Below are positions 17,558-62,405 of a stretch of DNA of 64,000 nt, in pieces. How positions within the stretch are numbered: position 1 is the first letter of the stretch; each line of letters begins with the position of its first letter. Source of the DNA: Acidimicrobiales bacterium (GTDB lineage: Bacteria > Actinomycetota > Acidimicrobiia > Acidimicrobiales > Acidimicrobilacustridaceae); NCBI GenBank assembly GCA_036823295.1, contig DAISGD010000005.1:15260-79259 (forward strand), in the 5' to 3' direction. The notes beneath the pieces are model-generated. The model ran no database searches. It had not been told where the DNA came from and saw only the letters and a list, made by a program, of their open reading frames with translations. A program made the position numbers and the translations under genes.

Positions 17558-17597
17558 TCTTCTCGTCGGGCGTCGCGTCGGGCGTTCTTGGGGGCGA

Positions 17598-46060: not shown

Positions 46061-47034
46061 GCATCGCTCAGGTCCCCGACCTTTCCGTGCTGGTGGTCAC
46101 CTACGAATGCGCGGACTTCGTCGAAGCCTGTCTCGCCTCGGTGGTGGCCACGACCCGCGACCACCGGGTGGAGCTGGTGGTGGCGGACAACGACTCGAGC
46201 GACGACAGCGTCGGCGTGGTCCGGCGGACCCACCCCTCGGCCATCGTGGTCGAGATGGGGAGCAACACCGGCTTTGCCCGGGCGGTCAACGCGGCCATGG
46301 CCGCCTCCCGCGGACGTATCGTCTTGTTGCTCAACCCCGACACCGAGGTGCAGCCGGGGGCCATCGACGCCCTCATGGATGAGCTCGACGCTCACCCCGA
46401 GGTGGGCGTGGTGGCGCCGCTGCTCTTGAACCCGGACGGTACGGACCAGGGCACCGCCCGGTCCTTCCCCACGCCGGCCGCCGCGCTGTGGGGCCGCCGG
46501 TCCCCGCTCACCCGACTCTTCCCCCGGAATCGAGTGTCACGCCGGTACCTGATCGGTCGCGACCGACGCGGCGACGGGTCGTTCGCCGTCGACTGGGTGT
46601 CCGGCGCCTGCCTCATGGCCCGGCGGGAGACCGCGCTGGCGCTGGGCGGGCTGGACGAGGGGTTCTTCATGCACTTCGAGGACGCCGACTTCTGCCACCG
46701 GGTGAAGGACAGCGGTCGCTCAGTCATCTGCGTTCCCGCCGCCCAGGTGGTCCACGCCGAGGGCGGCTGCCGGCGGGGCTGGCCGGCGTCACAGGTCGGT
46801 CACTTCCACTACGGCGCCTACCGCTACTGGACCAAGCACCACGCGCCCCAGCCGTGGAACCCGTTGCGACTGGTGGCGGCCTTCGCCCTGGCGGCGCGGG
46901 CCGGGGGCGTGTTGGCCAGCAACAGGATGTCGCGGCGCCACGCGTCCGACTCCCGTCACACCGGCAACCCCCTTGGATCCCCCCGAATCGATGTCCGCCA
47001 CCCTGACCCGCTGACGAGAGCGATGGATTCATGA
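46057..47034 (+). CDS. Family-2 glycosyltransferase
   Basis: LSVLVVTYECADFVEACL, VVADNDSSDDS, and the FMHFEDADFCHRV motif of rhamnosyl-type GT2 enzymes. ATGA overlap at 46057. Confidence 0.85.
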   Translation: MSIAQVPDLSVLVVTYECADFVEACLASVVATTRDHRVELVVADNDSSDDSVGVVRRTHPSAIVVEMGSNTGFARAVNAAMAASRGRIVLLLNPDTEVQPGAIDALMDELDAHPEVGVVAPLLLNPDGTDQGTARSFPTPAAALWGRRSPLTRLFPRNRVSRRYLIGRDRRGDGSFAVDWVSGACLMARRETALALGGLDEGFFMHFEDADFCHRVKDSGRSVICVPAAQVVHAEGGCRRGWPASQVGHFHYGAYRYWTKHHAPQPWNPLRLVAAFALAARAGGVLASNRMSRRHASDSRHTGNPLGSPRIDVRHPDPLTRAMDS

Positions 47035-48470
47035 ACACACGAGATCTGGTCGGTCACGCCCGCCCCTACTGGAGGATCGCGGTGGTCGCCGTGTTGGGCG
47101 GCCTCATCGCCTATGTGGGCTCCTACGTCGTCAGTCCGACGTACGTCTCCTCGACGCGCCTCTTGATCCGCAGTCGCGAGTCCACGGTGCCCAGCAGCAC
47201 CGGCCAGAACCTGCAGGGCCAGCCGGTCATCGACAGCACGCTGACCAAGGCACTGGGCGAGACCCAGAGCGCCGTGGTGTCCAGTCCGGCGGTGGCTGTG
47301 GCCGTCGTCGACGCGCTTCATCTCGACCAGCCCAAGCCCCAGAGCCAGTCCATCGTGGCCAAGGCCAAGCGCGCCGTGGCCGGCACCTTCAAGCGGGGCA
47401 AGGCCTTCCTGACCCACGGCTTCTATGCCGAGCCCACCGACCGTGATGCCGCCATCCAGCGGGTCCAGGCCGGGCTCGCGGCCAAGGCCCTGAAGGACTC
47501 CTACGTGCTCGAGGTCAGTGGGTCGGCTGAGACCGCCCAGGGTGCGGTGGACGTGACCAACGCCGCCGCCGATGCCCTGGTCGCCATCAGCAGCGCCCGC
47601 TTCCAGGAGGAGGCAAACAAGAACCGGGACTTCCTGGCCGTGCAGCTGACCAAAACCCAGGGCGAGGTCGAGGCCGCCACCGCGGCCAAGAACGGGTACC
47701 AGAAAGCGAACGGGATCACCGACCCTACGGTGGCCCTTACCGTGAGCAGCGAGTCCCGGGCCCAGCTCGAGCAGGACCTGCGCGATGCCCAGACCAACGT
47801 GGCCGGCACCCAGGCGCAGCTCAATGAGGTGAACACTCGCCTGGCCGCCACCGACCCAACGGTGGCATCCAGCTCGGCGATCCAGACGGGCCGGAGCACC
47901 ACCGACATCAACACCACCCAGCAGAGCGCGGCCTATCAGGCCCTACTGGTGGATCGGAACCGCCTCGAGGGCGAACTCGCCGGGTACCAGGCCCGCCAGA
48001 CCTTTCTCAGCAACCAACTCTCGGGCTCGACCAATTCGGCGGACACCGATCAGCAGGCCGGTCTCGCTCCGCTGACGCAACGGCTGGAGGCGGCGCAGAA
48101 GAACTACCAGAGCGTCAGCACCGAGTATCAGAACGCGGTGCTGGCCGCGGACCAGAAGAGCGTGGAGGTCACCCGGATCGACGAGGCCCAGACGCCGACG
48201 TTCCCGGTGAAGCCGCTGCGCTACATCTATCTGTTCCTGGGGCTGCTGTGTGGGGCGTTGGCGGGATGGGGCCTCACCTGGCTGCATCGCCGCAAGAACC
48301 CGGTGCCCGTGGATGACGACGCCGAAGCCATCGACCTGACCGGGACCTTGCCGGTGTTCACCAACGGCTACGGGGCTGACGGGAGCGACGGCGAGTTGCT
48401 GCCCACTCCGGCGCGCACCCAGGTCGGCCGGTTCGAGATCTTCCGGCCGGAGCCGGCGGACGGGCCGTGA
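47031..48470 (+). CDS. Wzz/GumC-type polysaccharide chain-length determinant (no kinase domain)
   Basis: N-terminal TM plus the Wzz motif (YVVSPTYVSSTRLLI), a long coiled-coil-like Ala/Gln-rich periplasmic region, and a C-terminal TM (LRYIYLFLGLLCGALAGWGL). No Walker A tyrosine-kinase module. Confidence 0.75.
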   Translation: MNTRDLVGHARPYWRIAVVAVLGGLIAYVGSYVVSPTYVSSTRLLIRSRESTVPSSTGQNLQGQPVIDSTLTKALGETQSAVVSSPAVAVAVVDALHLDQPKPQSQSIVAKAKRAVAGTFKRGKAFLTHGFYAEPTDRDAAIQRVQAGLAAKALKDSYVLEVSGSAETAQGAVDVTNAAADALVAISSARFQEEANKNRDFLAVQLTKTQGEVEAATAAKNGYQKANGITDPTVALTVSSESRAQLEQDLRDAQTNVAGTQAQLNEVNTRLAATDPTVASSSAIQTGRSTTDINTTQQSAAYQALLVDRNRLEGELAGYQARQTFLSNQLSGSTNSADTDQQAGLAPLTQRLEAAQKNYQSVSTEYQNAVLAADQKSVEVTRIDEAQTPTFPVKPLRYIYLFLGLLCGALAGWGLTWLHRRKNPVPVDDDAEAIDLTGTLPVFTNGYGADGSDGELLPTPARTQVGRFEIFRPEPADGP

Positions 48471-49972
48471 CGAACCAGGGCCGCGCCGCGTCCCGCGGCC
48501 CGACCGCGACCGTCCCGGCCTCGGCCCCGGCTCCCAATGGACGATCGCGGGCAGTGATGGTCAGTACCGCGAGCCAACTCGGCGCCCGCGGCCTGCACTT
48601 GGCGCTCAACGTGGTCAGCACGCTGGCATTGATCCGCTACCTGGGACCGGACCGCTACGGCGACTTCGTGATGGTGGTGACGGTGGCCGCCATCGGCGGG
48701 TTGGTCAGCGACATGGGCCTCAACAAGCTGGGCGTCCGCGAGATCGCCCGTGACCCGTCAGCCGAGGGCGAGGTCCTCGGGAGTGTCCTGCTGGCCCGGC
48801 TGGGCCTGGGCCTGGCCGCCGTGGCCCTGACCCTGACGGCCATGGCCGTGCTCGGGGCGACCGCCCAGGTCATCACCGCCGCCGCCTTGATCTCGATGCT
48901 GTATTTCACCGAGGCCGCGTTGTCGGTGTTCATCGTCTTCCACGTCCGGATCCAACAGCAGTATGAGGCCTTTGTGCGGGTGGTGATCGAGGCCGTCGAG
49001 ACCACCCTGGTGTTGGTCCTCATCGCCCATCAGGCCTCCCTCGTGCAGTTGGTGTCCGCCCAGGTCATCGCCGCCACCATCGGTGTCGGCCTGGCGCTGG
49101 CCCTGGCCCGCCGTCGCCTGGGGTACCTCCCCGGGCTGCGCTGGTCACGGGCCGCCGGCCTGCTCCGCGAGGCGCTCCCGGTCGGACTGACCCTGCTCCT
49201 CGCCGCGGTGTACATCAAAATCCCCAGCGTCTTGCTGGTCCGGCTCCGCAGCTCCGGAGAAGCGGGGTTGTACGGGGCCGCCTACCAGCCGATCGAGTAC
49301 CTACTCCTGTCGGCGGCCGTGGTCATCAACGTGCTATTGCCGATGCTGGCCCATTCCCACCTGGGAGCGCCCGAGCGCTTCAGCCAGTTGTACCGGGGTG
49401 GCAGTGAAGCTCTGCTGGCCGGCACCATCCCGGTATCCCTGCTCATCGTCGTCGGGGGTCCGGTCCTCGTACGCACGGTCTTCGGCGCCGACTTCGCGGC
49501 CAGTGCGGCCCCCCTGCGGCTTCTGGGACTCGCCCTCATTCCGATGGTGCTCAGCTTCTGGCTGAGCGTCGTGCTGCTGTCGGGCGGCCACCAACGGATC
49601 ACGCTGGCCTATGACCTGTTGGCCTTCGTGGTCACCGTCGGTCTGTGCTTCGCCCTCATTCCTGGCTACGGCGCCACCGGGGCGGCCGTGGTCATCCTGG
49701 CCAGCAGCCTGCTGGTGGTGCTGTGCGCGCTGACGGCGGCCCGGACGCGCCTGGGGGTCTCCCTCCCGCTCGCCCGCATGCTGGCGATCCTGGCCACTGG
49801 CGCGATCGGCCTCATGGCCGCTCTGTGGCTGGTGTCGTTGGGTCTGCCGGTCGTCCCCGTGCTGGTCACCGTGCTCGGCGCCTACGGGGTGGCCCTGTGG
49901 CGGTTCGGGCTGTTGCCGTCGCCGGCCCTGTTCGACAACCACCCGCCCATCGTCGGGGCGGTGGCCGGATGA
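48467..49972 (+). CDS. Wzx-type oligosaccharide flippase (MOP superfamily)
   Basis: 501 aa with about 12-14 hydrophobic segments. Typical start LALNVVSTLALIRYLGPDRYGDF. Confidence 0.8.
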   Translation: MTNQGRAASRGPTATVPASAPAPNGRSRAVMVSTASQLGARGLHLALNVVSTLALIRYLGPDRYGDFVMVVTVAAIGGLVSDMGLNKLGVREIARDPSAEGEVLGSVLLARLGLGLAAVALTLTAMAVLGATAQVITAAALISMLYFTEAALSVFIVFHVRIQQQYEAFVRVVIEAVETTLVLVLIAHQASLVQLVSAQVIAATIGVGLALALARRRLGYLPGLRWSRAAGLLREALPVGLTLLLAAVYIKIPSVLLVRLRSSGEAGLYGAAYQPIEYLLLSAAVVINVLLPMLAHSHLGAPERFSQLYRGGSEALLAGTIPVSLLIVVGGPVLVRTVFGADFAASAAPLRLLGLALIPMVLSFWLSVVLLSGGHQRITLAYDLLAFVVTVGLCFALIPGYGATGAAVVILASSLLVVLCALTAARTRLGVSLPLARMLAILATGAIGLMAALWLVSLGLPVVPVLVTVLGAYGVALWRFGLLPSPALFDNHPPIVGAVAG

Positions 49973-50967
49973 ATCAGCTCCCCTTCGTCTCCGTCGTGAT
50001 TCCCACCTACAACCGCTGCGACGTGATGGAGACAACGCTCGCACACCTGCTGTCCCAGGACTATCCCAGCGACCGGTTCGAGATCATCGTGGGCGACAAC
50101 TCCACCGATGCCACGCCGGAGATGGTCGAGCAGGTGGCGGCGACGTCGAGGGCACCCGTCCACCTCCTCTGGAACGAGGAGCGGTTGCCGGCGGTGAAGC
50201 GCAATGCCGCGCTGCGCCTCGCCCAGGGCGACCTGGTGTTGTTCTTCAACGACGACGTGTGGGCCCACCCCCAGCTGCTGGCTGAGCACGCCAGGACCCA
50301 CGCCGAGGCCGAGGCGCCCATCGCCGTGCTCGGCCACGTCGAGCAGTCACCGGCCATGCCCCAGACCCCGTTCACCGAGTGGTACCAGCCCTTCGCCTAC
50401 GACGAGATCGCCGACCGAGCCGGTGAGCCCCTGCCGTACCGCTACTCGTGGTCGATGAACCTCTCGTTCCCGCGGCGGGAGATGGTCGAGCGCGACCTCG
50501 TCTTCCACGAGGACTGGGCCAACATCGGTCACGAGGATGTCGAGCTCGGATATCGGTGGGTGTCGGCGGGGCGCTCGCTCGTGTACAACCCGGCCGCTCG
50601 GGCCGAGCACTACCACCCGCACGGATTGACCAGCGCGTGCCGGGTGCAGGAGTCGATCGGTCGTGGCGTGCGCGATCTCGAGGTGCTGGTGGACGACCCG
50701 GGCCTCCTCGAGCGCTATGGCGTGTTCAGTTGGCGCAACGGCACGCGGGCGGTCGTCCGGGGCGTCGCCCGCCGCGGTCTCTTCAACGCCGTCACGGTGC
50801 CGCCGCTGCAATCGTGGCTCGAGTCCCGGACCCGAAATACCGCCCTCACCGAGTGGCTCTATTGGAAGGTGCTGCTCCACCACACCAACCGCGGCTACCG
50901 CAACCAGCCCCCCCGCCACCCGCAGCCCCTCACCGTCCTGCCGGCGCGGTCTGAGGTGCCGTCATGA
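49969..50967 (+). CDS. Family-2 glycosyltransferase
   Basis: ORF 49645-50967 trimmed to the ATG at 49969 (MNQLPFVSVVIPTYNRCDVM), overlapping the flippase stop (ATGA). DxD-like FNDDV. Confidence 0.85.
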   Translation: MNQLPFVSVVIPTYNRCDVMETTLAHLLSQDYPSDRFEIIVGDNSTDATPEMVEQVAATSRAPVHLLWNEERLPAVKRNAALRLAQGDLVLFFNDDVWAHPQLLAEHARTHAEAEAPIAVLGHVEQSPAMPQTPFTEWYQPFAYDEIADRAGEPLPYRYSWSMNLSFPRREMVERDLVFHEDWANIGHEDVELGYRWVSAGRSLVYNPAARAEHYHPHGLTSACRVQESIGRGVRDLEVLVDDPGLLERYGVFSWRNGTRAVVRGVARRGLFNAVTVPPLQSWLESRTRNTALTEWLYWKVLLHHTNRGYRNQPPRHPQPLTVLPARSEVPS

Positions 50968-53900
50968 CCGCCGTGGCGCCGCCGGTCGGCCGTCGCGGGG
51001 TCGCCCACGGGCTCGTGCTGGCGGGCGCCGGCGCGCTGGCCGGGGTGGTTGCCGTCGTGGCCGGCCAGCACGGCATGATCGGCCTTGTCGCGGTGGCCGT
51101 GGTCGCGGTGGCCGTGGTGGCCGCGGTGGTGGGGCGGGCCCATCTCCGCCCGCTGAGGCCCGGCGCCCTGCTCGGCGCCGGTTCGCGCCCGGCCCCCGGC
51201 CATCCCGCCCCGGTGGCACCCGATCGCCTGCTCTCGGCGCTGTTGCTCGCCCTGGCCATCATGGCCGCCGGCACCCTCGCCGTGGCCGCCGCCATGCTCG
51301 GCGTGAAGGGGGCGATGTTGCTGGTGGCGCTGCTGGCCGGCGCCACGATCTGCTTCCTGTATCGGGCCGAGATCGGCCTCGTGGTGTTCGGGCACGGCAA
51401 GCACCGGGGCACGCCGTTGTGGGCCCAGTCGCCGCTGTTCGAGCCGGTGCGCAAGCTGCATCCGCCCGAGTCGCTGTCAGCCCCGCTGGCGGTGATGGTG
51501 GCCGTCGCCGCCGTCGCCGGCGCCGGGGTTCTGGCTTGGTTGGGGGCGTCGCTGGGGATGAAGGGGCCGATCCTGCTGATCGGGCTCGTGGCCGTGGTGG
51601 CCTTCCTGGTCTTCGTCCGACCGAGGGCCGACGCCCTGCTGTTCATCCTGCCGTGCTCGCTGGTGCTGTTCCTCCACAAATCCTTCACCCCCCTCCATCT
51701 GGTCAACAGCGGCGCGCCGGCCATCTACATCACCTCGGTCGGTGTGCTGCTGATCGTGTTGTACGGCGTGTGGGCTGCGGAGGGCACCATGCGCGCCGAC
51801 CTGCGGGTCGCCTTCCGCCGCCCCATCCTGTGGATCCCTCTGGTCGGCGCGGTGGTGCTACTGCCGAGCATCCTGGCCGCCACCGACGTGACCCTGAGCA
51901 TGGCCGAGCTTGTGCGCATGGCGTGGATGTACCTGCTGTATGTCTACGTGGCCGTACGGGTCCGTCGTCACACCCAGGTGCTCCTGTTGTTGACCGGCCT
52001 CGGCATCTTCGCCGTCGTCGAGTTCGTGGTGGTGGTCCTGCAGTGGAAGACCGGCGGGGTGCTCGGCCTCTCCTTCCTGGGGGTCCCGACCGAGCTGGGC
52101 GAGCGGGTGATCAATGACGGCAGTCTCGGGCGACCCTTCGGCACCATCGTCCACCCGGTCTTCATGGGAGCGACCATGGGCGCGCTGGGTTTGCTGTTCC
52201 TCGGGGTGGGATTGAGCGTCCGGGAGCTGCGGCTCAAGCTGGCGTCCCTCGCCCTGGTGCCGGTCTGCCTCATCCCGCTGTTCCTGGCCCACACCCGCGC
52301 CGCGGCCATCGCCTTCCTCCCGGTGGCCTTGGCGGTGGTGGTCACCAGTGCCGTGCAGGGGCGGATCAGCACCCGCTCGCTCAAGCAGATGGCATTGGTG
52401 GGGCTCGTGGCCGCGGCGGTGCTGTACCCGGTGCTGTCCAAGCAGTTCTCGGAGAACTTTTCGAGCGACCATTTCTCGGTCGAGGTCGAGTCCCGAGTCC
52501 AGCTCAACGACCTGGCCCTGAACGTGATCGCCGACCATCCCGAGACCGGCGTAGGGCTCAACAACTTCCAGGCGGTGCAGGACCGCTACGACAACTACGG
52601 CCTGCTCTTCGCCGGGAACCCGGTGCACAACCTGTACCTGCTCCAGACGGCCGAGACCGGCTACTTGGGACTGGCCGGCCTGTTGCTGGTCGGCGCGGGG
52701 CTGCTGCTCACCAGCTGGCGCCTGGCCCGCAGCCGGGATCCACTGCTGGGCGGGCTCGGCACCGGCGTCACCGCGGTGGTGGTGTTCTTCGCCATCGAGG
52801 AACTGCTCGGCTTCTCACTGCGCCAGGAGATCCCACTCGCCCTGTGGTGGTTGCTGGCCGGGATGGCCGTAGCCGGCACGGCGATGACCGCCGAGCGCAT
52901 CCCGCCCCGACCGCCGGCCTCCCTGCGGGTCCCGCGCCCGGGTGGGGGCAGCGGCCGCGACCGGATGCTCGTGGGGGCCGGGTCGAATGGGCACGGGTCG
53001 AATGGACAGAGCTCGAACGGGCACAGGCGCAGCGGGGCGCGCTGGCGTCTGCCCCGAACGTCACGGCGTCGCCTGGGGAGGATCGGGGCGGCCATGCTCG
53101 TCGCCTGCGTCTTGAGCCCGTGGCCGACCAGCGCCGGTGCCGGGGCCAACCCTCTCGCCGCAGTCCGCATCGTCTTCGCCGCCACCGACGAAACGGTCGG
53201 GGGCAACCAGGGGGTCTTCGTGGCCAACGGGGACGGCTCGGGAATCACCCGGGTCACCCCGAACGACGGGCTGTTCTACGACTTCCCGTCGTGGGCCATG
53301 GGCGGCACCAAGATCGTGTTCTCCAAGCGTGACGGGGGGCCGGGTACGCCGGAGAACATCTACCTGATGAACGCCGACGGTTCGGGGGTGCAGGCGCTCA
53401 CCCGCAGCCCGTGGCGCAACCATCAGCCCAAGGTGTCGGCGGATGGCCGGCGGGTCATCTTCTCCGGGTTCGTCCCCGGGACCCGGTTGGTGGCCATCTA
53501 CCAGATCGACCTTGACACGCTCCTGGTTCGCAACCTCTCGGCTGTCCATTCCCACTCGGTGATGGCCGACGCCGACCCCAAGTACACCGCCGATGGTCGC
53601 TCCATCGCCTTCGCCCGCAGCCGCGACGACCAAGGCGACGCCAAGACCCAGGTGTACCTGATGAACGCTGACGGCACGGGCCGCTACCGGGTCACCAACG
53701 ACGGCTGGTACGACGTCGATCCGGAGGTGTCTCCGGACAGCCGCTCCGTGGCCTTCTCGAGCTACCGCGGTCCGGGGACCCCTCAGCAGGAAGGGCGGGA
53801 GTTCGATGCCAAGTCGCAGGACTTCTACCTCGGGGTTCGGGACCTGGCCACCGGCACGGAGCAAACCCTGACCGGCGGGGAGAACTGCGCCGCCCGAGAC

Positions 53901-55205
53901 CCGAACCACCCCTGCCTTCCCAGTGAGGGCTCGGCCTATGTCCCGGTGTGGAGCCCTGACGGCGGCCAGCTCGGCTACATCACCGCCCTCGACTCCAATC
54001 GCACCTGCCTTTGCGTGATGGCCCGCAACGGATCGAATGCCCATGCCGTCATCGCCCGGCCCGGCCTCTCGATGACCTGGTTCGACTGGGTCATTCCGGG
54101 CCAGGCCCCGGACACGGCCGTCACCGACATCGGCGGGGCCAAGCCGGCTGACCGGATGCTGGTGGCCGGCACGCAGACCGCGTCGGAGAGCGACCCGGCG
54201 TCGCGACCCATCCTCGAGGTCACCACCCGTGATCTGTGGGACCGCACCGAAGTGCCGATCCCGGGAGGACTGAACCCCCGCTTCGCCCGATGGAACGCGG
54301 ATCGCTCGACGGTCGTGTTCAGCTCGGTGGTCCCGGGCGACGTGCCCCGCCCCGAGGCGCCGCCGGTCCCTCCCGCCGGGCAGCGGCGTCACGAGCACTT
54401 CACCCTGGCTGACCTCGATGCCGTGTTCCACCCGCCGGTGGTCCGGCCCGAGGTGGCCCGCGAGCAGGTGTTCGTGTCGGGCGCCCAGGGGGTCTTCCCG
54501 CTCACGAACCCCGGCACCGAGGACTGGCACGACGGCATCGTGGCCGGCGACCTTCGGGGCAACACCGAGCCGGACATCTCACCCGACGGCCGCTATGTGG
54601 TGACCACCAACGTCTCGTCGGTCACCAACGAGTCGTTCCTGCTGCGCATCGACCTGGTCACTGGTGAGCGGTTCAACCTCACCAACGCCACGTCGGGGGC
54701 GATGCCGGTCGACGACGCCCAACCCCGCTTCTCACCCGATGGCCAGTCCCTCGCCTTCACCTCGAGTTTCGAGGGTCACGCCGGCGTGTACGTCATGGAT
54801 GCCGCGACCGGCTTGGGGGTGCGCTCGCTCACCGAGGACGACTTCTTCAACACTGCGCCGGCGTGGTCACCCGACGGCCGCTCCATCGTCTACGCCAGCT
54901 ACCGCGGCGACACCCTGAAGCTGCTCCAGTCCCTGGCGCTCCCGGCCGAGGCGGGGACCATCCCCCTCGGCGACTGGTACCTGGTCAGGGTCGATGTGGC
55001 CACCGGTGCCGAGCAGGTGATCACCGCGGCTGCCGCCTCGCCGACGCTGGCCCCGGCCTGGTCACCCGACGGCAGCGAGATCGCCTACATCTCGACCACC
55101 GACGGGTTCCAGCCCGACGTCTACGTGGTGTCCGCCACGGGCGGCGCCTCCCGGCCCCTGCAGATCACGGGACTGACCCAAGAACACTCGGTGGATTGGA
55201 AATGA
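50964..55205 (+). CDS. Fusion protein: Wzy/O-antigen-ligase-like polytopic membrane domain + long TolB-like PD40 beta-propeller region
   Basis: Single 1413-aa frame with no stop. Residues 1 to about 640 are polytopic membrane, with O-antigen ligase/polymerase features (LAHTRAAAIAF, GNPVHNLYLLQTAETGYLGLAG). A Pro/Arg/Gly linker carries GSNGH repeats and a signal-peptide-like RRRLGRIGAAMLVACVLSPWPTSAGA. At least ten PD40-type repeats follow: SADGRRVIFSG, TADGRSIAFAR, SPDSRSVAFSS, SPDGGQLGYI, NADRSTVVFSS, SPDGRYVVTT, SPDGQSLAFTS, SPDGRSIVYAS, SPDGSEIAYIS. Confidence 0.8.
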   Translation: MTAVAPPVGRRGVAHGLVLAGAGALAGVVAVVAGQHGMIGLVAVAVVAVAVVAAVVGRAHLRPLRPGALLGAGSRPAPGHPAPVAPDRLLSALLLALAIMAAGTLAVAAAMLGVKGAMLLVALLAGATICFLYRAEIGLVVFGHGKHRGTPLWAQSPLFEPVRKLHPPESLSAPLAVMVAVAAVAGAGVLAWLGASLGMKGPILLIGLVAVVAFLVFVRPRADALLFILPCSLVLFLHKSFTPLHLVNSGAPAIYITSVGVLLIVLYGVWAAEGTMRADLRVAFRRPILWIPLVGAVVLLPSILAATDVTLSMAELVRMAWMYLLYVYVAVRVRRHTQVLLLLTGLGIFAVVEFVVVVLQWKTGGVLGLSFLGVPTELGERVINDGSLGRPFGTIVHPVFMGATMGALGLLFLGVGLSVRELRLKLASLALVPVCLIPLFLAHTRAAAIAFLPVALAVVVTSAVQGRISTRSLKQMALVGLVAAAVLYPVLSKQFSENFSSDHFSVEVESRVQLNDLALNVIADHPETGVGLNNFQAVQDRYDNYGLLFAGNPVHNLYLLQTAETGYLGLAGLLLVGAGLLLTSWRLARSRDPLLGGLGTGVTAVVVFFAIEELLGFSLRQEIPLALWWLLAGMAVAGTAMTAERIPPRPPASLRVPRPGGGSGRDRMLVGAGSNGHGSNGQSSNGHRRSGARWRLPRTSRRRLGRIGAAMLVACVLSPWPTSAGAGANPLAAVRIVFAATDETVGGNQGVFVANGDGSGITRVTPNDGLFYDFPSWAMGGTKIVFSKRDGGPGTPENIYLMNADGSGVQALTRSPWRNHQPKVSADGRRVIFSGFVPGTRLVAIYQIDLDTLLVRNLSAVHSHSVMADADPKYTADGRSIAFARSRDDQGDAKTQVYLMNADGTGRYRVTNDGWYDVDPEVSPDSRSVAFSSYRGPGTPQQEGREFDAKSQDFYLGVRDLATGTEQTLTGGENCAARDPNHPCLPSEGSAYVPVWSPDGGQLGYITALDSNRTCLCVMARNGSNAHAVIARPGLSMTWFDWVIPGQAPDTAVTDIGGAKPADRMLVAGTQTASESDPASRPILEVTTRDLWDRTEVPIPGGLNPRFARWNADRSTVVFSSVVPGDVPRPEAPPVPPAGQRRHEHFTLADLDAVFHPPVVRPEVAREQVFVSGAQGVFPLTNPGTEDWHDGIVAGDLRGNTEPDISPDGRYVVTTNVSSVTNESFLLRIDLVTGERFNLTNATSGAMPVDDAQPRFSPDGQSLAFTSSFEGHAGVYVMDAATGLGVRSLTEDDFFNTAPAWSPDGRSIVYASYRGDTLKLLQSLALPAEAGTIPLGDWYLVRVDVATGAEQVITAAAASPTLAPAWSPDGSEIAYISTTDGFQPDVYVVSATGGASRPLQITGLTQEHSVDWK
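52980..53024 (+). repeat. In-frame 15-nt triple repeat (GSNGH/GSNGQ/SSNGH) in the fusion linker
   Basis: gggtcgaatgggcac / gggtcgaatggacag / agctcgaacgggcac. Confidence 0.85.
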
Positions 55206-56230
55206 CCGTGTCGAACTCCGCCGAGCTGACTGACCTCAACGACCGGCTAGCCCCGGGCGACCCCGCCACGCACCGCCCTGCCGCTGAGGTCCTGGATGTG
55301 ACGGCGGTGATCGTCAACTGGAACACCGCCGACCTCCTCGACCAGTGCCTGACCAGCCTGCGCGACCACCGGGCCCCCGGGCACGGGGTCGAGGTCATCG
55401 TGGTCGACAACGGCTCGACCGATGGCTCGGTGGCCATGATCGAGCAGCGCTGGCCGGAGGTGACCGTCGTGGCCAACGCCGACAACGTCGGCTTCTGCCG
55501 GGCCAATAACCAGGCCATCGAGATCAGCGACAAGCCCTATCTCCTGCTCATCAATGCCGATGCCCGCCTGACCCCCGGCTGCCTCCGGCACCTCGTGGCC
55601 CGGATGGAGTCCGATGACCGGGTCGGCGTCGTCGCCCCCCGCCTCGAGTACGGCGACGGTCGCTTCCAGCGGTGGACCGCCGGTCGGGCTCCGTCGTTGC
55701 GGAGCGTCGCCAGTTACCTTTTCCTCACTGATCGGCTCGACGGTCGGTTCCCCGCCCTGGCCGGCACATACCTCGGCCACGACACCGCCGTCGCCTTCGA
55801 GCCGCAATGGGTGTCCAGCGCCTGCATGCTCGTGCGGCGGGCCGTGGTCGACGACGTCGGACCCCTCGACGAGCGCATCTTCGTCTACATGGACGACGTC
55901 GAGCTCTGCCAGCGGGCCCGGGATGGTGGCTGGGCGGTCTGGTACGAGCCGGCGGCGACGGCGGTCCATCTCATGGGTCAGAGCACCAAGCGGCGGACGG
56001 GGGTGGCGTCGCCCGAGGCCCTGCGGGCGTTCAACCGGTACTTCCAGCGCCGCCACGGCCGGGGTCGAACCACCGCACTGAGAGCCCTGCAGGCCGGCGG
56101 TTTCGGGCTCCGGGTTCTCGCCTACGGCGCCACCGGGCTCGTTCTGCACGACGACGGCCGTCGGGCCCAGGCCCGGGCCCATCTCTCCCATTTGAAACTG
56201 AGTCTCGAGACACCGGAGGTAGCAGCATGA
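55202..56230 (+). CDS. Family-2 glycosyltransferase
   Basis: ORF 54863-56230 trimmed to the ATG at 55202 (MTVSNSAEL...), with an ATGA overlap. VTAVIVNWNTADLL, VVDNGSTDGS, YMDDVELCQRA. Confidence 0.85.
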   Translation: MTVSNSAELTDLNDRLAPGDPATHRPAAEVLDVTAVIVNWNTADLLDQCLTSLRDHRAPGHGVEVIVVDNGSTDGSVAMIEQRWPEVTVVANADNVGFCRANNQAIEISDKPYLLLINADARLTPGCLRHLVARMESDDRVGVVAPRLEYGDGRFQRWTAGRAPSLRSVASYLFLTDRLDGRFPALAGTYLGHDTAVAFEPQWVSSACMLVRRAVVDDVGPLDERIFVYMDDVELCQRARDGGWAVWYEPAATAVHLMGQSTKRRTGVASPEALRAFNRYFQRRHGRGRTTALRALQAGGFGLRVLAYGATGLVLHDDGRRAQARAHLSHLKLSLETPEVAA

Positions 56231-57190: not shown

Positions 57191-57253
57191 CCGAACGACC
57201 CCGAACGACCCCGAACGACCCCGAACGACCCGAACGACCCGAACGACCCGAAC
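57191..57253. repeat. Intergenic tandem repeat CCGAACGACC (4 x 10 nt, then 2 x 9 nt and a partial unit)
   Basis: Units at 57191, 57201, 57211 and 57221 (10 nt), then 57231 and 57240 (9 nt), then a partial unit. It ends 5 nt before the GGAGA ribosome-binding site of the gene starting at 57267. Confidence 0.95.
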
Positions 57254-57266: not shown

Positions 57267-58331
57267 ATGGCTGGCCCGCTCCCCGGTGATGACCGCTCTG
57301 TCGTCGTCGTGATTCCGATGCCCAACGACCCCGACTGGGGGCTGTGGGACGACCTGTCCGAAGACATCCCCATCATCGTGGTCGACGACAGCGACGGGAA
57401 CCTGGCCCCGCCGCCGCGGTCCAACGTCCGATACTTCGACTATGCGGCACAGAAGGCGATCTGCGGCGAGCACTACGACGCCATGCCTCACAAGAGCGCG
57501 GCCAGTCGCAACTTCGGGCACTACCTGGCCTACCAGGAGGGCTTCGACGTCGTCATCGCCCTCGACTACGACTGCCGGACCCGGCCGGGCTGGCTGGAGG
57601 CCCATCTCGAGTCGCTGACCAAGGCCGTCGAGGCCCCGGCGCTCGAGGGGAACTGGATCAACTCGATCGAGGCCCCGGGCTTCTACTCGCGGGGTTACCC
57701 CTACGAGTACCGCAACGCCGAGGCCTCAGCGGTGACCGAGACCCTCGCCACCGGCGAGGTGAAGATGAACATGGGAGTCTGGGACCACATCCTCGACCTC
57801 AACGGCGTGGACAAGCTGGCCGCCGAACCGCCCTACGACCCGGGCCTGCGGGCCGATACCAACCTGGTGGCGCTGGGCAATCTTCCCCTCTGTGGCATGA
57901 ACACGGCGTTCGCCGCCGAGGTCACACCCGCCTACTTCTTCCTCCCCGATCTTTGGATCGACGGGTGGCAGCTCAGCCGCCACGACGACATCTGGGGCGG
58001 CTACGTCGTCAAGAAGCTGATGGATCGCCGGGGCGATCTGCTCACGTTCGGCCGCCCGGTCGTCGAGCACACCAAGCAGACCCGTCTCGAGCGTGTGGTC
58101 CTGCTCGAGCACTGGATGCACCTCATGGCGACCGGCTTTTACGAGATCGTCGACGAGGCCGCCGACACGGTGGAGATGGGCCCGTACTCCGACATGTTCG
58201 GGGCCTTCGTGGAGGCCTATCGCGCCGGAGTCGAGCGGAGCACGCGGCCGGCCCACTACCGGCAGGTCTACCGCGAGCTGGGCGAATGGATGGACCGCTG
58301 GTCGAGGGCCTTCTCCTCCGGAGCCTCCTGA
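57267..58331 (+). CDS. GT75-family protein: homologue of plant reversibly glycosylated polypeptide / UDP-L-arabinopyranose mutase
   Basis: Collinear similarity by eye to plant RGP, listed as ours versus RGP. [9 protein letters not shown]...[10 protein letters not shown] vs IVIPTIRNL...[23 protein letters not shown]...VVIALDYDC vs FKDSACRCFGYMVS...[18 protein letters not shown] vs [32 protein letters not shown] vs [36 protein letters not shown] vs GRYDDMWAGWCIKV. Confidence 0.7.
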   Translation: [354 protein letters not shown]

Positions 58332-58347: not shown

Positions 58348-59505
58348 GTGAGGGTGGCGGTCGACGCAACCGGGCTCGGTTCGGGCCAGGGTGGCGACGA
58401 GACGATGATGGCCGGGCTCCTGGAGGGGTTGGCCGAAGCGGCCCGGCCGGGGGACAGCTTCCCGCTCATCGTCCGTGACGGCGTCACCCTGCCAGCCCCG
58501 GTGGCCGACCACCCCGCGTTCTCCGTCCACTCGATGCGTCGCCTGCCGGGGGCGCTGCACTTCACCGCCCGTCTCCCGCGGGCGTTGAGTCGGCTGCGGC
58601 CCGTCCCCGACCTCGTCTGCGCCGTCACTCACGGCCCCCTGCGGTCTCCAGCGCCGGTAGCCCTCTTCGTCCAGGACCTCTCGTTCCATCACCACCCTGA
58701 GCACTACCCGGTCGTGGCCCGGTGGCGGCTCCGCACGGTGGTGCCCCGCCAGGCTCGCCGGGCCCGCGCCGTGCTCACCGTCAGCGAGTTCTCCCGCTCA
58801 GACCTGATCGCCAGCTACGAGCTGCCGCCTGAGCAGGTGGTGGTCGTGCCGGATGCGGTGGCCGTCCCCCCGCCGTGGGACGACACCGCCGCGGCCGAGG
58901 GTCGCCAGTGGTTGGCGTCCCAAGGGGTGGACGGGCGCTTCATCCTGTGCCTGGGCAACCTGCACCCCCGGAAGAACGTGGCCCGGTTGGTGGCCGGTTT
59001 CGCCCAGGCCCGGGCCGGCGCCCCCGATCTGGCCGATGTGCGCCTCGTGGTGGCCGGTGCCCGATGGTGGGGCGCCGGCGAGGCCGCGGCCGCGGCCCAG
59101 GCTCCGGACGGGTCGGTCGTTTTCCTCGGTCGGTTTGACGACGATCGTCGTGAGCAGCTCCTGCGACTGGCCGACGCCCTGGCCTACGTGTCGGTGTTCG
59201 AGGGTTTCGGGCTCCCCCCGCTCGAGGCCATGGCCCGGGGCACCGTGGTCCTGGCGTCGGACGCCACGGCGGTAGCCGAGACGGCCGGGGACGGCGCGCT
59301 CCTGGTCGATCCCTACGACGTGCACGCCATCGCCGAGGGGCTGGTGCGGGTGCTGTCCGACGAGCAGCTTCGGGTCGAGCTGCGCCGGCGTGGCGCGGCC
59401 CGGGCGGCCGGCTATGACGTCGGCTCCACCGGTCGAAGGGCCCGAGAGGCCTTCGCCGCCGCCATCGGGCTGACGGCGGCACCGCGCCCCGGGGCGGTGT
59501 CGTGA
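58348..59505 (+). CDS. Family-4 (GT-B, Glycos_transf_1) glycosyltransferase
   Basis: ORF 58093-59505 trimmed to the GTG at 58348 (VRVAVDATGLG...). C-terminal motif YVSVFEGFGLPPLEAMARG. Confidence 0.8.
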   Translation: MRVAVDATGLGSGQGGDETMMAGLLEGLAEAARPGDSFPLIVRDGVTLPAPVADHPAFSVHSMRRLPGALHFTARLPRALSRLRPVPDLVCAVTHGPLRSPAPVALFVQDLSFHHHPEHYPVVARWRLRTVVPRQARRARAVLTVSEFSRSDLIASYELPPEQVVVVPDAVAVPPPWDDTAAAEGRQWLASQGVDGRFILCLGNLHPRKNVARLVAGFAQARAGAPDLADVRLVVAGARWWGAGEAAAAAQAPDGSVVFLGRFDDDRREQLLRLADALAYVSVFEGFGLPPLEAMARGTVVLASDATAVAETAGDGALLVDPYDVHAIAEGLVRVLSDEQLRVELRRRGAARAAGYDVGSTGRRAREAFAAAIGLTAAPRPGAVS

Positions 59506-60542
59506 AGATGAGTCTGCGCATCGCCCTCGTGCTCGGCGGGATGGCCGTTCTGGCCGTCCTGGCCGTCGGGGTGTTCCTCGTGCTGCTGGCGGTCAAGAAT
59601 CGGCCGCCGAAGGTGCCAGGCGATTTCGCGGCCCCGAGCGCTCTGGCCCCGGCCGCCGGTGCGGCACCGTCGGGCAGCCTCTTTTACGACTCGGATCGGA
59701 CCGGCAACTTCGAGGTGTACGTCGCCCCGTCACCGGGAGCGACCCCGACCGCGCTGACCCACGACCCGACCTGGGATAGCTGGTGGCCCCGGCTATCGCC
59801 CGACCGTCATCGGGTGCTGTTCTACCGGACGCCCAAGGGCGTGCACGACACCAACTTCTCCAAGACGCACCTGTGGATGATGAACGCCGACGGAACCGGT
59901 CCGGTCGAGTTGCGGCCACCGGGGCTCGACGGTTGGGCCCAGCAGGGGCACGCTGATTGGTCTCCCGACGGGCAGCAGTTGGTGATGTTCGGGGGGAAGA
60001 ACACCAATCCCCAGATCTACGTCACCCAGGCGACCGGGCAGTCGCCGCGCCGGCTGACCGACCGGGGTGGGATCAATGTCGACCCGAGTTTCTCGCCCGA
60101 CGGCCGGACCATCGCCTTCGTGGGCTGCCCCCAGTCGGTGTGTTTCGAGGACGACTACGAGATCTACACGATGGCGGCCGACGGCGCTTCGCCAGCCCAG
60201 CGGATGACCGATGATCGCCTGCGCGACCACGATCCCTATTACTCGCCCGACGGCACCCGCATCGCCTGGCTGACCCGGACCTCGACCCATGGTCAGCACC
60301 CTGGGGGGTCATGGAACATCCGCATCGCCAACGCCGACGGATCCGACCAGCGTCGCCTGACCGACGACGACCAGATCAACAGCAAGCCGGAATGGTCCCG
60401 TGACGGCCAGACGATCTACTTCCACCGGTTCGAGATGGGTCGCCTCACCGGCTTCAGCATCTTCTCGATCGACATCGCCGGGTCGCACATGGTCGAGGTC
60501 ACGGCCGGGCAGCCCGGAGTGAACGAGTTCCCGTCGACATGA
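59502..60542 (+). CDS. Membrane-anchored TolB-like PD40 beta-propeller protein
   Basis: N-terminal TM (IALVLGGMAVLAVLAVGVFLVLLAV) and PD40 repeats SPDRHRVLFYR, SPDGQQLVMFG, SPDGRTIAFVG, SPDGTRIAWLT, SRDGQTIYFHR. The GTG at 59502 overlaps the upstream stop. The ATG at 59508 is an alternative start. Confidence 0.8.
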   Translation: MKMSLRIALVLGGMAVLAVLAVGVFLVLLAVKNRPPKVPGDFAAPSALAPAAGAAPSGSLFYDSDRTGNFEVYVAPSPGATPTALTHDPTWDSWWPRLSPDRHRVLFYRTPKGVHDTNFSKTHLWMMNADGTGPVELRPPGLDGWAQQGHADWSPDGQQLVMFGGKNTNPQIYVTQATGQSPRRLTDRGGINVDPSFSPDGRTIAFVGCPQSVCFEDDYEIYTMAADGASPAQRMTDDRLRDHDPYYSPDGTRIAWLTRTSTHGQHPGGSWNIRIANADGSDQRRLTDDDQINSKPEWSRDGQTIYFHRFEMGRLTGFSIFSIDIAGSHMVEVTAGQPGVNEFPST

Positions 60543-61746: not shown

Positions 61747-61748
61747 AC

Positions 61749-62405
61749 GTGGGAGAGCCGGGGCTGACGTTGTGGGACTACGTGCGGAGCGACTTTCAGG
61801 CGACCCGGGACATGGACCCGACCCGGTCCCGCAGCCTGAAGCGCGCCGTGGACGTGCTCACCCAGGCGGGCTTCATGAGTCTGGCGCTCTACCGGGTCGG
61901 CGCTGCGGCGCATTCCCGGGGTCACAAGCTCCTGGCCCGTCTGCTCCTGCATCTCAACGTCTTCGTGTTCAACTGCGAGATCTACCCGCAGACGGTCATT
62001 GGGCCGGGCGCGGCCATCACCCACCCGCTCGGAGTGGCGATCGGGGCCGGGGTGGTGATGGGTCGCGACGTGCGCATCCACGGGCTGGTCCGGATCGGCA
62101 CCGCCGGCTACGAGGACGGTCGGGTCGACGGATTCCCGGTGATCGGCGACGGCTGTCGCCTGTTCGACCACGCCATGCTGTTCGGGCCTATCGAGATCGG
62201 GGCCGACTCCAAGATCGGCGCCAACGTGCTCCTGCTGCAGTCGGTGCCCGCGGGATCGGTGGTGGTGGCTCCCCAAGGCATCGTGCTTCCACCCAAGGGA
62301 GCCAACGGCTCAGGTCGGGCTCACTCCGAGCCGGCGCCGGATCTCGGCGACACCGTCGATCTCGGCGGCGAGGTCGCGACCTCGGGGGATGAGGTTCAGC
62401 GTTGA
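61749..62405 (+). CDS. Hexapeptide-repeat O-acetyltransferase (serine acetyltransferase-like)
   Basis: CysE-like helical N-terminus (RDMDP...ALYRVGAAAHSRGHKLLARLL) followed by left-handed beta-helix repeats (IGPGAAITHPLGVAIGAGVVMGRDVRIHGLVRIG...IGDGCRLF...IGADSKIGANV). The last 40 or so residues are a non-repeat tail antisense to the next gene. Confidence 0.75.
   Translation: MGEPGLTLWDYVRSDFQATRDMDPTRSRSLKRAVDVLTQAGFMSLALYRVGAAAHSRGHKLLARLLLHLNVFVFNCEIYPQTVIGPGAAITHPLGVAIGAGVVMGRDVRIHGLVRIGTAGYEDGRVDGFPVIGDGCRLFDHAMLFGPIEIGADSKIGANVLLLQSVPAGSVVVAPQGIVLPPKGANGSGRAHSEPAPDLGDTVDLGGEVATSGDEVQR

Follow-up and report, generated by a model that had tools for sequence, protein, structure and literature searches.

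What does a protein of the GT75/RGP family do inside a bacterial polysaccharide cluster? When furanose sugars occur in the envelope of a bacterium, the usual explanation is a flavin-dependent mutase of the Glf type; the GT75 mutases characterised to date come, to our knowledge, solely from plants and two antibiotic pathways. The question arises in a 64,000-nt stretch of acidimicrobial DNA (hereafter the window), in which a first-pass annotation had noted a 354-aa reading frame resembling plant reversibly glycosylated polypeptides (RGP) and UDP-L-arabinopyranose mutases (UAM), and had proposed that it supplies a furanose nucleotide sugar, L-Araf or similar, by a flavin-independent route. Our analysis keeps the route and changes the sugar: with slightly better than even confidence, we consider the protein to be a flavin-independent dTDP-6-deoxyhexopyranose-to-furanose mutase that serves a surface polysaccharide.

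A GT75 gene in a Wzx/Wzy-type cluster

The reading frame, of the length and at the position first annotated, is a real gene: it opens with ATG, is preceded at 7 nt by an AAGGAG ribosome-binding site, and has a base composition (GC3 = 0.91; GC2 = 0.44) typical for genes of this 70% GC window. The likeness to RGP/UAM was confirmed, with all five quoted motifs present and collinear, and the profile search that had been suggested as a check was significant (Pfam PF03214: 37.7 bits, E 1.8e-9, profile positions 22-267 of 342; gathering cut-off, 23.8 bits). Homologues in the databases also carry PF03214, and the top PDB match by sequence was the bacterial enzyme MtdL (phmmer, E 1e-21 with the protein; E 2.7e-26 with a profile), showing that the protein is a member of the GT75/RGP family.

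The surrounding locus is a Wzx/Wzy-type polysaccharide cluster (Table 1), in agreement with the exopolysaccharide setting first described, and both neighbours named at that time, an RmlD-family reductase and a GT4 glycosyltransferase, are in place. The Wzz/GNVR label is tentative because both of its matches fall slightly under the Pfam gathering scores. The spacer between the reductase and GT75 genes is occupied by a tandem repeat that ends at the GT75 ribosome-binding site and is absent from the ten related loci inspected. The hexapeptide-repeat acyltransferase probably acylates the glycan. No NDP-sugar precursor genes were found across the remainder of the window, where 0-32 kb are devoted to the transport and breakdown of purines and pyrimidines and housekeeping genes lie at 32-45 kb.

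Table 1. Features of the polysaccharide cluster, in window coordinates, with supporting matches and occurrence among the 64 related loci.
Feature	Position	Strand	Support	Related loci
Priming phosphoglycosyl transferase (Bac_transf)	45227..46060	+	PF02397, 187 bits	
GT2a, GT2 glycosyltransferase	46057..47034	+	PF00535, 77.5 bits	
Wzz/GNVR chain-length determinant (tentative)	47031..48470	+	PF13807, 27.1 (cut-off 27.7); PF02706, 22.2 (cut-off 25.5)	
Wzx-type flippase	48467..49972	+	PF01943 and PF13440	37-43 of 64
GT2b, GT2 glycosyltransferase	49969..50967	+	PF00535, 79.6 bits	45 of 64, median identity 61%
1413-aa fusion: Wzy/O-antigen-ligase-type membrane domain (N-terminal 680 aa) and TolB-like PD40 beta-propellers	50964..55205	+	PF04932 Wzy_C, 48.6 bits (cut-off 31.7); PF07676 PD40, 113 bits	
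GT2c, GT2 glycosyltransferase, conserved neighbour	55202..56230	+	PF00535, 93 bits	52-54 of 64
RmlD-family NAD(P)H 4-ketoreductase paralogue, 315 aa	56227..57174	+	PF04321, 209 bits; TIGR01214, 202.5 bits	
Tandem repeat (CCGAACGACC) x 6.6	57191..57253		TRF score 105	
GT75/RGP-family protein, predicted Mn2+-dependent NDP-sugar pyranose-furanose mutase, 354 aa	57267..58331	+	PF03214; MtdL match; AF2 model; residue comparison	
GT4 glycosyltransferase (predicted GTG start at 58348)	58348..59505	+	PF00534, 85.5 bits; PF13439	47-51 of 64
Membrane-anchored PD40 beta-propeller protein, conserved cluster member	59502..60542	+	PF07676, 82 bits	PD40 cluster in 53
Hexapeptide-repeat acyltransferase, frequent accessory	61749..62405	+	PF00132	homologue in 29-46

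Fold and catalytic residues

The final AF2 model of the protein, built on a 79-sequence alignment (pLDDT 95.3; pTM 0.94), superseded an earlier one made from 15 close relatives (identity 64% or more), in which the core was disordered (pLDDT 69). It shows a GT-A Rossmann-like N-terminal region, a family-specific core and a C-terminal helical region. In Foldseek, the top structural match of the model was again MtdL (7XPR; TM 0.84/0.81 over the entire chain; E 6e-27), followed by rice UAM2 (8CID; TM 0.65), with the remaining GT-A enzymes at TM 0.39 or below. A UGM-type FAD-binding fold was sought in Pfam, NCBIfam and by structure search and none was found; the protein is thus not a UGM/Glf member, and it may work like UGM without belonging to that family.

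MtdL, from the A201A pathway of Marinactinospora thermotolerans, and Hyg20, from that of hygromycin A, are GT75 enzymes characterised as GDP-L-Galp/GDP-L-Fucp pyranose-furanose mutases, and their crystal structures have been solved (PDB 7XPR, 7XPS, 7XPT, 7XPU, 7YUA; PMC9937993). Seven MtdL residues (D109, D111, R159, D195, R257, D260 and H287) are each essential or metal-binding (PMC9937993). By alignment, all seven have equivalents in our protein: the metal site (D111, H287) is kept as D102 and the Mn ligand H268, R159, D195 and D260 as the nucleophile R142, D177 and the base D241, the phosphate/sugar-binding Arg257 as R238, and D109 as D100, the first residue of the DxD motif (D100-Y101-D102). 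Across 79 relatives the catalytic positions are invariant or almost so: R142, D177, D241 and D102 never vary, and H268 is kept in at least 90%. With Mn ligands, nucleophilic Arg and catalytic Asp residues all retained, the best reading of the protein is that it supplies a furanose nucleotide sugar, reached without flavin as first proposed. The same features of family, fold and active site that it shares with MtdL and Hyg20 predict a flavin-independent ring contraction.

A counterpoint lies outside this set: the position of MtdL Asp87 is Ala78 in our protein and Ser in active plant enzymes, next to Ser77, which is of the MtdL type; mutation of Asp87 abolishes MtdL activity (PMC9937993).

An RmlD paralogue accompanies the GT75 gene

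The ~15-kb Wzx/Wzy cassette recurs in 64 genomes, mostly of Acidimicrobiia and other Actinomycetota with a few from Chloroflexota, Acidobacteria and Methylomirabilota, and GT75 is its best-conserved protein (median identity 65% across phyla). An RmlD-like gene lies no more than 10 kb from the GT75 gene in 56 of the 64 loci, immediately upstream in 49, and in 7 loci sits 6-9 kb away, beside GT2a. The whole cassette is conserved, so the two genes could also be adjacent just because both belong to it, and not because their products act in succession.

The reductase resembles RmlD (dTDP-4-dehydrorhamnose reductase) in its PF04321 match (209 bits), its match to RmlD structures in the PDB (E 5e-46) and its intact Rossmann GxxGxxG and YxxxK motifs. 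It differs in scoring under the 224.05-bit trusted cut-off of TIGR01214, which places it in PF04321 and outside the RmlD equivalog, and in sharing 29% identity with the canonical RmlD of Humibacillus; TIGR01214 scores of GT75-linked RmlD homologues span 198-234, against 289.7 for that canonical enzyme. In Humibacillus, the RmlD-like gene coexists with the genes for that canonical RmlD, RmlA and RmlC, which are 3-8 kb away. The idea that the RmlD-like gene is a housekeeping RmlD is disfavoured by both the sub-threshold score and this coexistence. We take the reductase to be an RmlD paralogue and predict that it makes the 6-deoxyhexopyranose substrate of the mutase. As a counterpoint, it could merely make dTDP-L-rhamnose for a GT2 enzyme of the rhamnosyltransferase type.

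The sugar itself had been proposed to be L-Araf or similar, and L-Araf found no support: neither the window nor the 64 related loci contain UDP-xylose or UDP-arabinose genes, and the recurrent partners of GT75 are dTDP-6-deoxyhexose enzymes.

Proposed nucleotide and reaction

The carboxylate of MtdL D110, the middle residue of its DxD motif, binds ribose O2' (PMC9937993). The equivalent residue is Y101 in our protein, Y, S, N or H across its subtree, and D in almost all remaining family members. On the basis of sequence alignment and one crystal structure, Tyr101 in place of the ribose-binding Asp may be a nucleotide signature that favours dTDP. P13 and D42 (MtdL numbering) are the residues of the pyrimidine (plant) type.

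We infer the mutase activity, the dTDP specificity, the identity of the 6-deoxyhexose and the transferase that uses the product, and combine them as follows. Housekeeping RmlA and RmlB, with or without RmlC, would supply a dTDP-4-keto-6-deoxyhexose, which the co-transcribed RmlD paralogue would reduce to the dTDP-6-deoxyhexopyranose. If the reaction follows that of MtdL, D102 and H268 would hold the Mn2+ that binds the diphosphate, and D241 and D177 would activate R142 for attack on C1, giving an arginine-sugar adduct; the sugar ring would then open and reclose via O4 to release the NDP-furanose. One glycosyltransferase of the cluster, for which GT2c is a candidate, would use the product, a dTDP-6-deoxyhexofuranose (D-Fucf, 6-deoxy-L-Talf or L-Rhaf type); GT2c shows weak matches to rhamnosyltransferase (TIGR01556) and GlfT1 models and none to PDB sequences at E <=1e-5. 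Assembly of the repeat unit would take place on a lipid carrier; Wzx would then flip the unit, and polymerisation would fall to the Wzy-PD40 fusion.

Related chemistry is known from other surface glycans. In E. coli O52, Fcf1 and Fcf2 constitute a flavin-dependent pathway to dTDP-D-Fucf. In C. jejuni HS:41, the reductase HS41.18 and the mutase HS41.17 yield CDP-D-Fucf and CDP-6-deoxy-L-Altf; here, as proposed for our pair, C4 reduction of an NDP-4-keto-6-deoxyhexose precedes the ring contraction, and the sugar is destined for a surface polysaccharide (PMC12369002). The mutases of both systems are FADH2-dependent Glf homologues of an unrelated fold, whereas ours is a GT-A protein, predicted to be Mn-dependent, whose partner reductase is an RmlD paralogue.

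Alternative substrates and roles

The alternative that survives best, which we nevertheless consider unlikely, is that the protein resembles plant UAM in function and converts UDP-L-arabinopyranose (or UDP-D-galactopyranose) into UDP-L-Araf or UDP-Galf, while the RmlD-like enzyme separately makes dTDP-L-rhamnose for another transferase. It would account for the 7 loci in which the two genes lie apart and for the rhamnosyltransferase-like matches of GT2c, and UDP-Galp would require no cluster-encoded enzyme. Plant class-1 enzymes (AtRGP1-3, OsUAM1/3) and our protein also share the Pfam family, the collinear motifs and P13, D42, C112, G228-M229 and K289 (MtdL numbering), a sugar- and base-pocket signature that matches active class-1 enzymes and not MtdL. 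This signature is, however, the general consensus of prokaryotic GT75, so that the plant-like motifs of the first-pass annotation imply no special plant tie. From the features that define class 1 (DDD; P13, D42, D86 and S87; placement in the plant clade), our protein has P13 and D42; it reads DYD, has S77-A78 instead of D-S and stands outside the plant clade, and the ~21% identity to plant RGP was measured against a class-1 sequence for which a 354-bit match to 8CID was the sole check. The ribose-2'-OH-binding Asp of DDD, common to plants and MtdL, is the residue replaced by Tyr. No UDP-pentose context accompanies the gene: UDP-Glc dehydrogenase, UDP-GlcA decarboxylase and UDP-Xyl 4-epimerase do not recur in the 64 loci, and the RmlD-like/GT75 pair stands alone on phage contigs, which is hard to square with unrelated roles.

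Somewhat less probable still is that the protein acts mainly as a glycosyltransferase (arginine self-glycosylating, protein-glycosylating or priming), drawing on the 6-deoxyhexose donor that the RmlD paralogue makes and releasing no free NDP-furanose. Reversible autoglycosylation on a conserved Arg is what defines GT75 proteins (PMC9937993), R142 is invariant in a GT-A fold, and certain plant members have glycosylation activity alone. In the mechanism proposed for MtdL, however, the mutase reaction itself passes through the Arg adduct, and our protein keeps the equivalents of R257, H287 and D111, the three catalytic residues that the mutase-inactive plant class-2 enzyme has lost. The cluster already contains one priming transferase and four glycosyltransferases, and neither a signal peptide nor a partner protein suggests a protein-glycosylation target.

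We regard it as improbable that the protein, like MtdL and Hyg20, is a GDP-L-fucose/GDP-L-galactose pyranose-furanose mutase, even with MtdL as the nearest solved structure and best PDB sequence match and with Ser77 equivalent, at one base-specificity position, to MtdL Ser86; S86D abolishes GDP binding in MtdL and T13P lowers its GDP affinity 28-fold (PMC9937993). The pocket signature of MtdL and Hyg20 (T13, N/K42, S86, D87, N112, S/T228-Q229, R289, H292) reads P, D, S, A, C, G-M, K and T in our protein, so that S86 alone matches, the essential D87 is missing and Pro stands at the very position of T13P. At ~25% identity, our protein further differs from the pair in the DxD middle residue (Tyr, Asp in MtdL), in its RmlD paralogue instead of GDP-sugar enzymes and in its Wzx/Wzy cassette instead of an antibiotic cluster. 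Gmd, Fcl and GDP-mannose 3,5-epimerase genes were found neither in the window nor among the recurrent neighbours of the 64 loci; by way of control, a true MtdL-like member (P0254) adjoins Gmd and an Fcl-like gene, consistent with known GDP-fucose chemistry.

Finally, an inactive or regulatory paralogue acting as a scaffold in a glycan-synthesis complex, as plant class-2 RGPs are conserved and complex-forming in spite of being inactive, is hardly credible for the most conserved protein of the cassette, with catalytic and metal-binding residues all intact and no second, active GT75 gene in the loci examined.

Breadth of the GT75 family

The first-pass annotation had treated GT75 as essentially a plant and green-lineage family, a view that MtdL and Hyg20 (PMC9937993) and the bacterial and archaeal members already in CAZy (PMC6861824) make outdated. 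Our profile search recovered 1,036 GT75 clusters at 50% identity, about 1,000 of them prokaryotic and viral, and a literature search on phage or polysaccharide GT75 and on Hyg20 returned nothing beyond these two papers. A rough neighbour-joining distance tree placed our protein within the prokaryotic radiation, in a subtree separate from the plant clade, and the [ST]228-Q229 signature occurred in 17 full-length representatives, which cluster with MtdL. Horizontal transfer, raised earlier as a matter for phylogeny, was rejected in the form of a recent acquisition from plants on the 21% identity, the place in a large prokaryotic radiation and the native GC3.

An RmlD-like gene adjacent to or overlapping GT75 appeared again in subclades 35-45% identical to our protein, namely P0122 and, on phage contigs, P0125 and P0132. 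The P0122 locus carries RmlA-like, bona fide RmlB (448 bits; cut-off 365), GT75 and RmlD-like genes, and subclade P0130 has only GT2 neighbours, with no SDR nearby. Among viral GT75 genes, 19 of 22 of the DSDC type lie near an RmlB-like or RmlD-like gene, compared with 3 of 55 of the DDDN type.

We tentatively extend the proposal, at somewhat less than even confidence, to the whole D[YSNH]DC subfamily of GT75. These proteins may form an unrecognised class of flavin-independent dTDP-6-deoxyhexopyranose mutases that each pair with an RmlD paralogue of their own in a two-gene module and provide a 6-deoxyhexofuranose donor new for these organisms. The sugar would go into an envelope polysaccharide conserved in Acidimicrobiia, many Actinomycetes, Limnocylindria and others, and phages would carry the module to alter surface or virion glycans. 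We know of no 6-deoxyhexofuranose reported from the cultured carriers, which include Humibacillus xanthopallidus DSM 21776, Nakamurella leprariae YIM 132084 and Actinopolymorpha pittospori DSM 45354. If the proposal is true, a second, metal-dependent route to furanose donors, for thymidine-linked 6-deoxy sugars, would be widespread in environmental Actinomycetota, neighbouring phyla and phages, and the gene would mark a conserved, chemically uncharacterised surface polymer. The pair would also offer ready enzymes for making rare dTDP-furanoses, and the DxD middle residue would become a sequence rule that predicts the nucleotide specificity of GT75.

For viral members, a tblastn search of GenBank phages with our protein gave 3 weak records only, and the IMG/VR scan was more informative. 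The gene of the window is itself the best-conserved representative of the D[YSNH]DC subfamily.

A true GT75 member outside the plant branch

The GT75 gene is an intact ORF encoding 354 aa; its ATG start follows an AAGGAG ribosome-binding site by 7 nt, and its codon-position GC (GC3 0.91; GC2 0.44) is in line with genes of the 70% GC window. The first-pass annotation had named its product a GT75/RGP-like protein, and this was borne out: the five motifs that it quoted were all found, in the same order, and the protein scored 37.7 bits against PF03214 (gathering score 23.8; profile positions 22-267 of 342). The protein is thus a true GT75 member. That assignment is not new, as automatic annotation also arrives at it: homologues in the databases come with a precomputed PF03214 match, and JGI names some of them "Reversibly glycosylated polypeptide". 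The target's best matches among solved structures lie outside plants: the "transglycosylase" entries 7XPR, 7XPS, 7XPT, 7XPU, 7YUA and 8HL8 (E 1e-21 by sequence; E 2.7e-26 by profile), which are MtdL, a bacterial GT75 GDP-L-Gal/L-Fuc mutase. The cofactor of MtdL-type enzymes is Mn2+, not FAD (PMC9937993). The first-pass view of GT75 as essentially a plant family is out of date: MtdL is bacterial, and by 2019 CAZy had 9 bacterial and 43 archaeal members (PMC6861824). A GT75 profile search of 1.84 billion representative proteins returned 1,036 clusters at 50% identity with E <=1e-3 (584 with E <=1e-10).

The target is 25% identical to MtdL, 19% to rice UAM2 (8CID), and 21% to a plant class-1 sequence that has a 354-bit match to 8CID as its sole check. 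A rough neighbour-joining tree placed it in a large prokaryotic radiation, outside the plant branch; this position and the 21% identity argue against recent plant-to-bacterium transfer, a possibility raised earlier. The plant-like motifs noted in the first pass are family consensus, since most prokaryotic members carry them as well. The MtdL group is marked by T13, N112, S/T228-Q229, R289 and H292, whereas the target has P13, C112, G228-M229 and K289, a set found in active plant enzymes and most prokaryotic members alike.

Catalytic residues and nucleotide signature

The AlphaFold model (79-sequence alignment; pLDDT 95.3, pTM 0.94) matched MtdL in Foldseek at TM 0.84/0.81 (E 6e-27), rice UAM2 at TM 0.65, and unrelated GT-A transferases at TM <=0.39. 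We mapped MtdL residues that are essential per mutagenesis or crystallography through an alignment of MtdL (residues 9-366) and 8CID (residues 8-341), both taken from HMMER alignments, with 113 full-length representatives, four closer homologues and the plant class-1 sequence.

Essential MtdL residues and their counterparts in the target
MtdL	Target	Role
D109	D100	DxD motif
D111	D102	Mn ligand
R159	R142	nucleophile / autoglycosylated Arg
D195	D177	orients Arg adduct
R257	R238	phosphate and sugar binding
D260	D241	catalytic base
H287	H268	Mn ligand

R142, D102, D177 and D241 are invariant over the 79-sequence alignment, and the target retains D111, R257 and H287 of MtdL, all missing from the mutase-inactive plant class-2 enzyme. 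D87, essential in MtdL, is replaced by Ala78 in the target and by Ser in active plant enzymes, the latter indicating that D87 is no family-wide requirement.

D110, in the centre of the MtdL DDD motif, hydrogen-bonds ribose O2' through its carboxylate (PMC9937993). The corresponding Y101 is invariant in the target's clade, and the position is Y, S, N or H in the surrounding subtree, the one linked to RmlA/RmlB/RmlD-like genes; it is Asp in nearly all other GT75 proteins, plants and MtdL included. Loss of this 2'-OH ligand would fit a 2'-deoxy nucleotide (dTDP). The target carries P13 and D42, which are pyrimidine-type (PMC9937993); its S77 is MtdL-type.

A polysaccharide cassette conserved across genomes

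The GT75 gene belongs to a co-directional run whose stops and starts overlap or nearly abut. Nucleotide-sugar genes were not found in the remainder of the window, which holds purine/pyrimidine catabolism and housekeeping genes.

Features of the window and of compared loci (median identity is across the 64 cassette loci)
Feature	Position	Description	Median identity
Catabolism gene run	13443-27398 (-)	long purine/pyrimidine run, unrelated to the GT75 finding: adenine deaminase, two xanthine-dehydrogenase-type molybdopterin subunits and FAD subunit, amidohydrolases, CN-hydrolase, M20 peptidase, luciferase-like monooxygenase	
Cassette run	45227 to ~60542	co-directional genes	
Gene 1	from 45227	Bac_transf priming transferase	
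Gene 2		GT2a	
Gene 3		putative Wzz	
Gene 4		Wzx	42%
Gene 5		GT2b	61%
Gene 6	50964-55205	1413-aa fusion of Wzy_C membrane domain (48.6 bits; cut-off 31.7) to ~730 aa of TolB-like PD40 beta-propellers	
Gene 7		GT2c	52%
Gene 8	56227-57174 (+)	RmlD-like reductase	65%
Tandem repeat	57191-57253	(CCGAACGACC) x 6.6, 98% matching; spans spacer from RmlD-like stop to GT75 ribosome-binding site	
Gene 9	57267-58331 (+)	GT75 (target)	65%
Gene 10		GT4	50%
Gene 11	59502-60542	PD40 protein, membrane-anchored	
3' genes	60577-62405	thiolase-like, then hexapeptide acyltransferase	
L061	14459-19263	Humibacillus xanthopallidus SLM-627; canonical RmlD, RmlA, RmlC-like	
L068	7147-9023	phage contig (Logan SRR29078191); overlapping RmlD-like and GT75	
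L070	8001-9805	phage contig (ENA ERZ27247988); overlapping RmlD-like and GT75	
L155	761-12409	MtdL-like GT75 in ABC-transporter (Wzm/Wzt) polysaccharide locus; Gmd, Fcl-like, GT2s, two large sulfotransferase proteins	
L156	5899-13784	phage contig with holin; long glycan cassette	
L158	5462-7626	403-aa GT75-like protein in phage replication module	

A scan with one genome per species gave 64 loci with proteins 42-81% identical to the target, mostly in Acidimicrobiia and other Actinomycetota and further in Limnocylindria/Chloroflexota, Acidobacteria and Methylomirabilota (cultured examples: Nakamurella leprariae, Actinopolymorpha pittospori, Micromonospora sp. and Humibacillus xanthopallidus). 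The cassette recurs whole, as Wzx - GT2b - Wzy/PD40 - GT2c - RmlD-like - GT75 - GT4 - PD40. Of the 64 loci, 56 have the RmlD-like gene: in 49 it directly precedes GT75 with the same orientation, and in 7 it lies 6-9 kb upstream, adjoining GT2a. Clustering all ORFs of the 64 loci yielded no recurrent RmlA, RmlB, RmlC, Gmd, Glf or UDP-pentose genes. PD40 proteins match GT75 in cassette conservation (53 loci). Inspection of ten related loci did not reveal the tandem repeat; in L001 the spacer instead contains an inverted repeat.

Variable inserts encode KAS III, hydroxyacyl-CoA dehydrogenase, MaoC, acyl-CoA dehydrogenase, methyltransferase-like and sulfotransferase-like proteins. The variable acyl-metabolism genes of the window are the thiolase-like and hexapeptide acyltransferase genes; in L027, L029, L030, L031 and L002 such genes lie between GT75 and GT4, and those outside the window comprise KAS III, 3-hydroxyacyl-CoA dehydrogenase, MaoC dehydratase, acyl-CoA dehydrogenase, carrier-protein-like and AMP-ligase-like genes. 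Variation in acyl-metabolism, sulfotransferase-like and methyltransferase-like genes suggests that acylation or other decoration of the glycan differs from lineage to lineage.

The reductase partner and phage-borne modules

RmlC probes run over 2.19 Mb of loci matched only the Humibacillus locus, at 52% identity, a match from which we judged the probes to be working. Here canonical RmlA (464 bits), RmlD (289.7 bits) and an RmlC-like gene lie 3-8 kb downstream of the cassette, and the genome therefore has two neighbouring RmlD-family reductases. Since the GT75-linked reductase scored only 203.9 bits and is 29% identical to canonical RmlD, the cassette reductase is, judging by sequence, a distinct paralogue, at least in this genome.

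P0122, a representative of another subclade (~41% identical to the target), lies in the order GalE-like SDR, bona fide RmlB (448.6 bits vs 365), RmlA-like (239 bits), GT75, RmlD-like (218.7 bits, overlapping GT75) and two transferases, with no RmlC by Pfam. Two further representatives, P0125 and P0132, are both on phage contigs, one with DNA polymerase A, ThyX, MazG and a tape-measure protein, the other with a Mu-like capsid protein and prohead protease, and in each the RmlD-like gene overlaps GT75. The pairs of L068 and L070 are situated inside a DNA pol A/ThyX/MazG module in one and directly 3' of Mu-like capsid and prohead protease genes in the other; no recognisable glycosyltransferase was found near the L068 pair. 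The Wzm/Wzt locus of MtdL-like P0254, taken as a control, has Gmd and an Fcl-like gene next to GT75, in agreement with known GDP-fucose chemistry.

At least 100 viral contigs in IMG/VR carry GT75-like genes. In the 80 kept (L071-L150; 22 DSDC-type and ~55 DDDN-type by signature), an RmlB-like or RmlD-like gene was present in 19/22 DSDC loci vs 3/55 DDDN loci, with DSDC scores of 241 bits for RmlB-like (TIGR01181 being the best model) and 234 bits for RmlD-like. DSDC-type genes usually adjoin an RmlB-like SDR. The DDDN type includes Synechococcus phage S-T4, in which the gene is annotated as a hypothetical or membrane protein. No paper on phage GT75 came up in the library searched.

Proposed pathway and alternatives

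We propose that housekeeping RmlA and RmlB, possibly with RmlC, would supply dTDP-4-keto-6-deoxyhexose, which the cassette's RmlD paralogue would reduce at C4. GT75 would contract the ring via a sugar adduct of Arg142, D102 and H268 holding Mn2+ and D241 acting as base, and the dTDP-6-deoxyhexofuranose (candidates: D-Fuc, 6-deoxy-L-Tal or L-Rha type) would be consumed by one of the cluster's transferases. Wzx would then flip the repeat unit and the Wzy-PD40 fusion would polymerise it, with acylation a possible further modification. The pathway logic resembles that of flavin-dependent Fcf1/Fcf2 in E. coli O52, whose mutase fold differs from GT75. The same likeness in logic and difference in fold hold for flavin-dependent C. 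jejuni HS:41 (PMC12369002).

In an unlikely alternative that nevertheless survives best, GT75 would be a UDP-Arap/UDP-Galp mutase and the reductase would act for a separate rhamnosyl transferase; the main objection to this reading is the phage two-gene module together with Y101. We consider an Arg-glycosylating transferase rather than a mutase somewhat less likely still, as mutase-class residues are kept and five transferases are already in the cluster. An MtdL-type GDP-sugar mutase is improbable, failing on signature and genomic context, and an inactive paralogue highly improbable, every catalytic residue being intact and highly conserved.

For the dTDP-sugar mutase that we favour, the novelty appears to be the subfamily, not the family, in that it is predicted to use another nucleotide, is paired with a dedicated reductase, has a role in a polysaccharide cassette of wide conservation and is carried by phages; no paper on these features came up in the library searched.

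Other GT75 contexts

Since its MtdL-like GT75 sits in a Wzm/Wzt locus, L155 raises the prospect that GDP-L-fucofuranose may be used in polysaccharides too, beyond antibiotics. The L158 gene, whose product belongs to the subgroup nearest the plant branch, closes a phage replication module (DnaB, RNase H, Toprim); overlap with a dCMP-deaminase-domain gene hints at a nucleotide or DNA-modification role. The L156 cassette encodes GT1-like, GT75, GT2, an IspD/SDR fusion (CDP-ribitol-synthase-like), sulfotransferase, methyltransferase, TagF-like Glyphos_transf and GT4 proteins.
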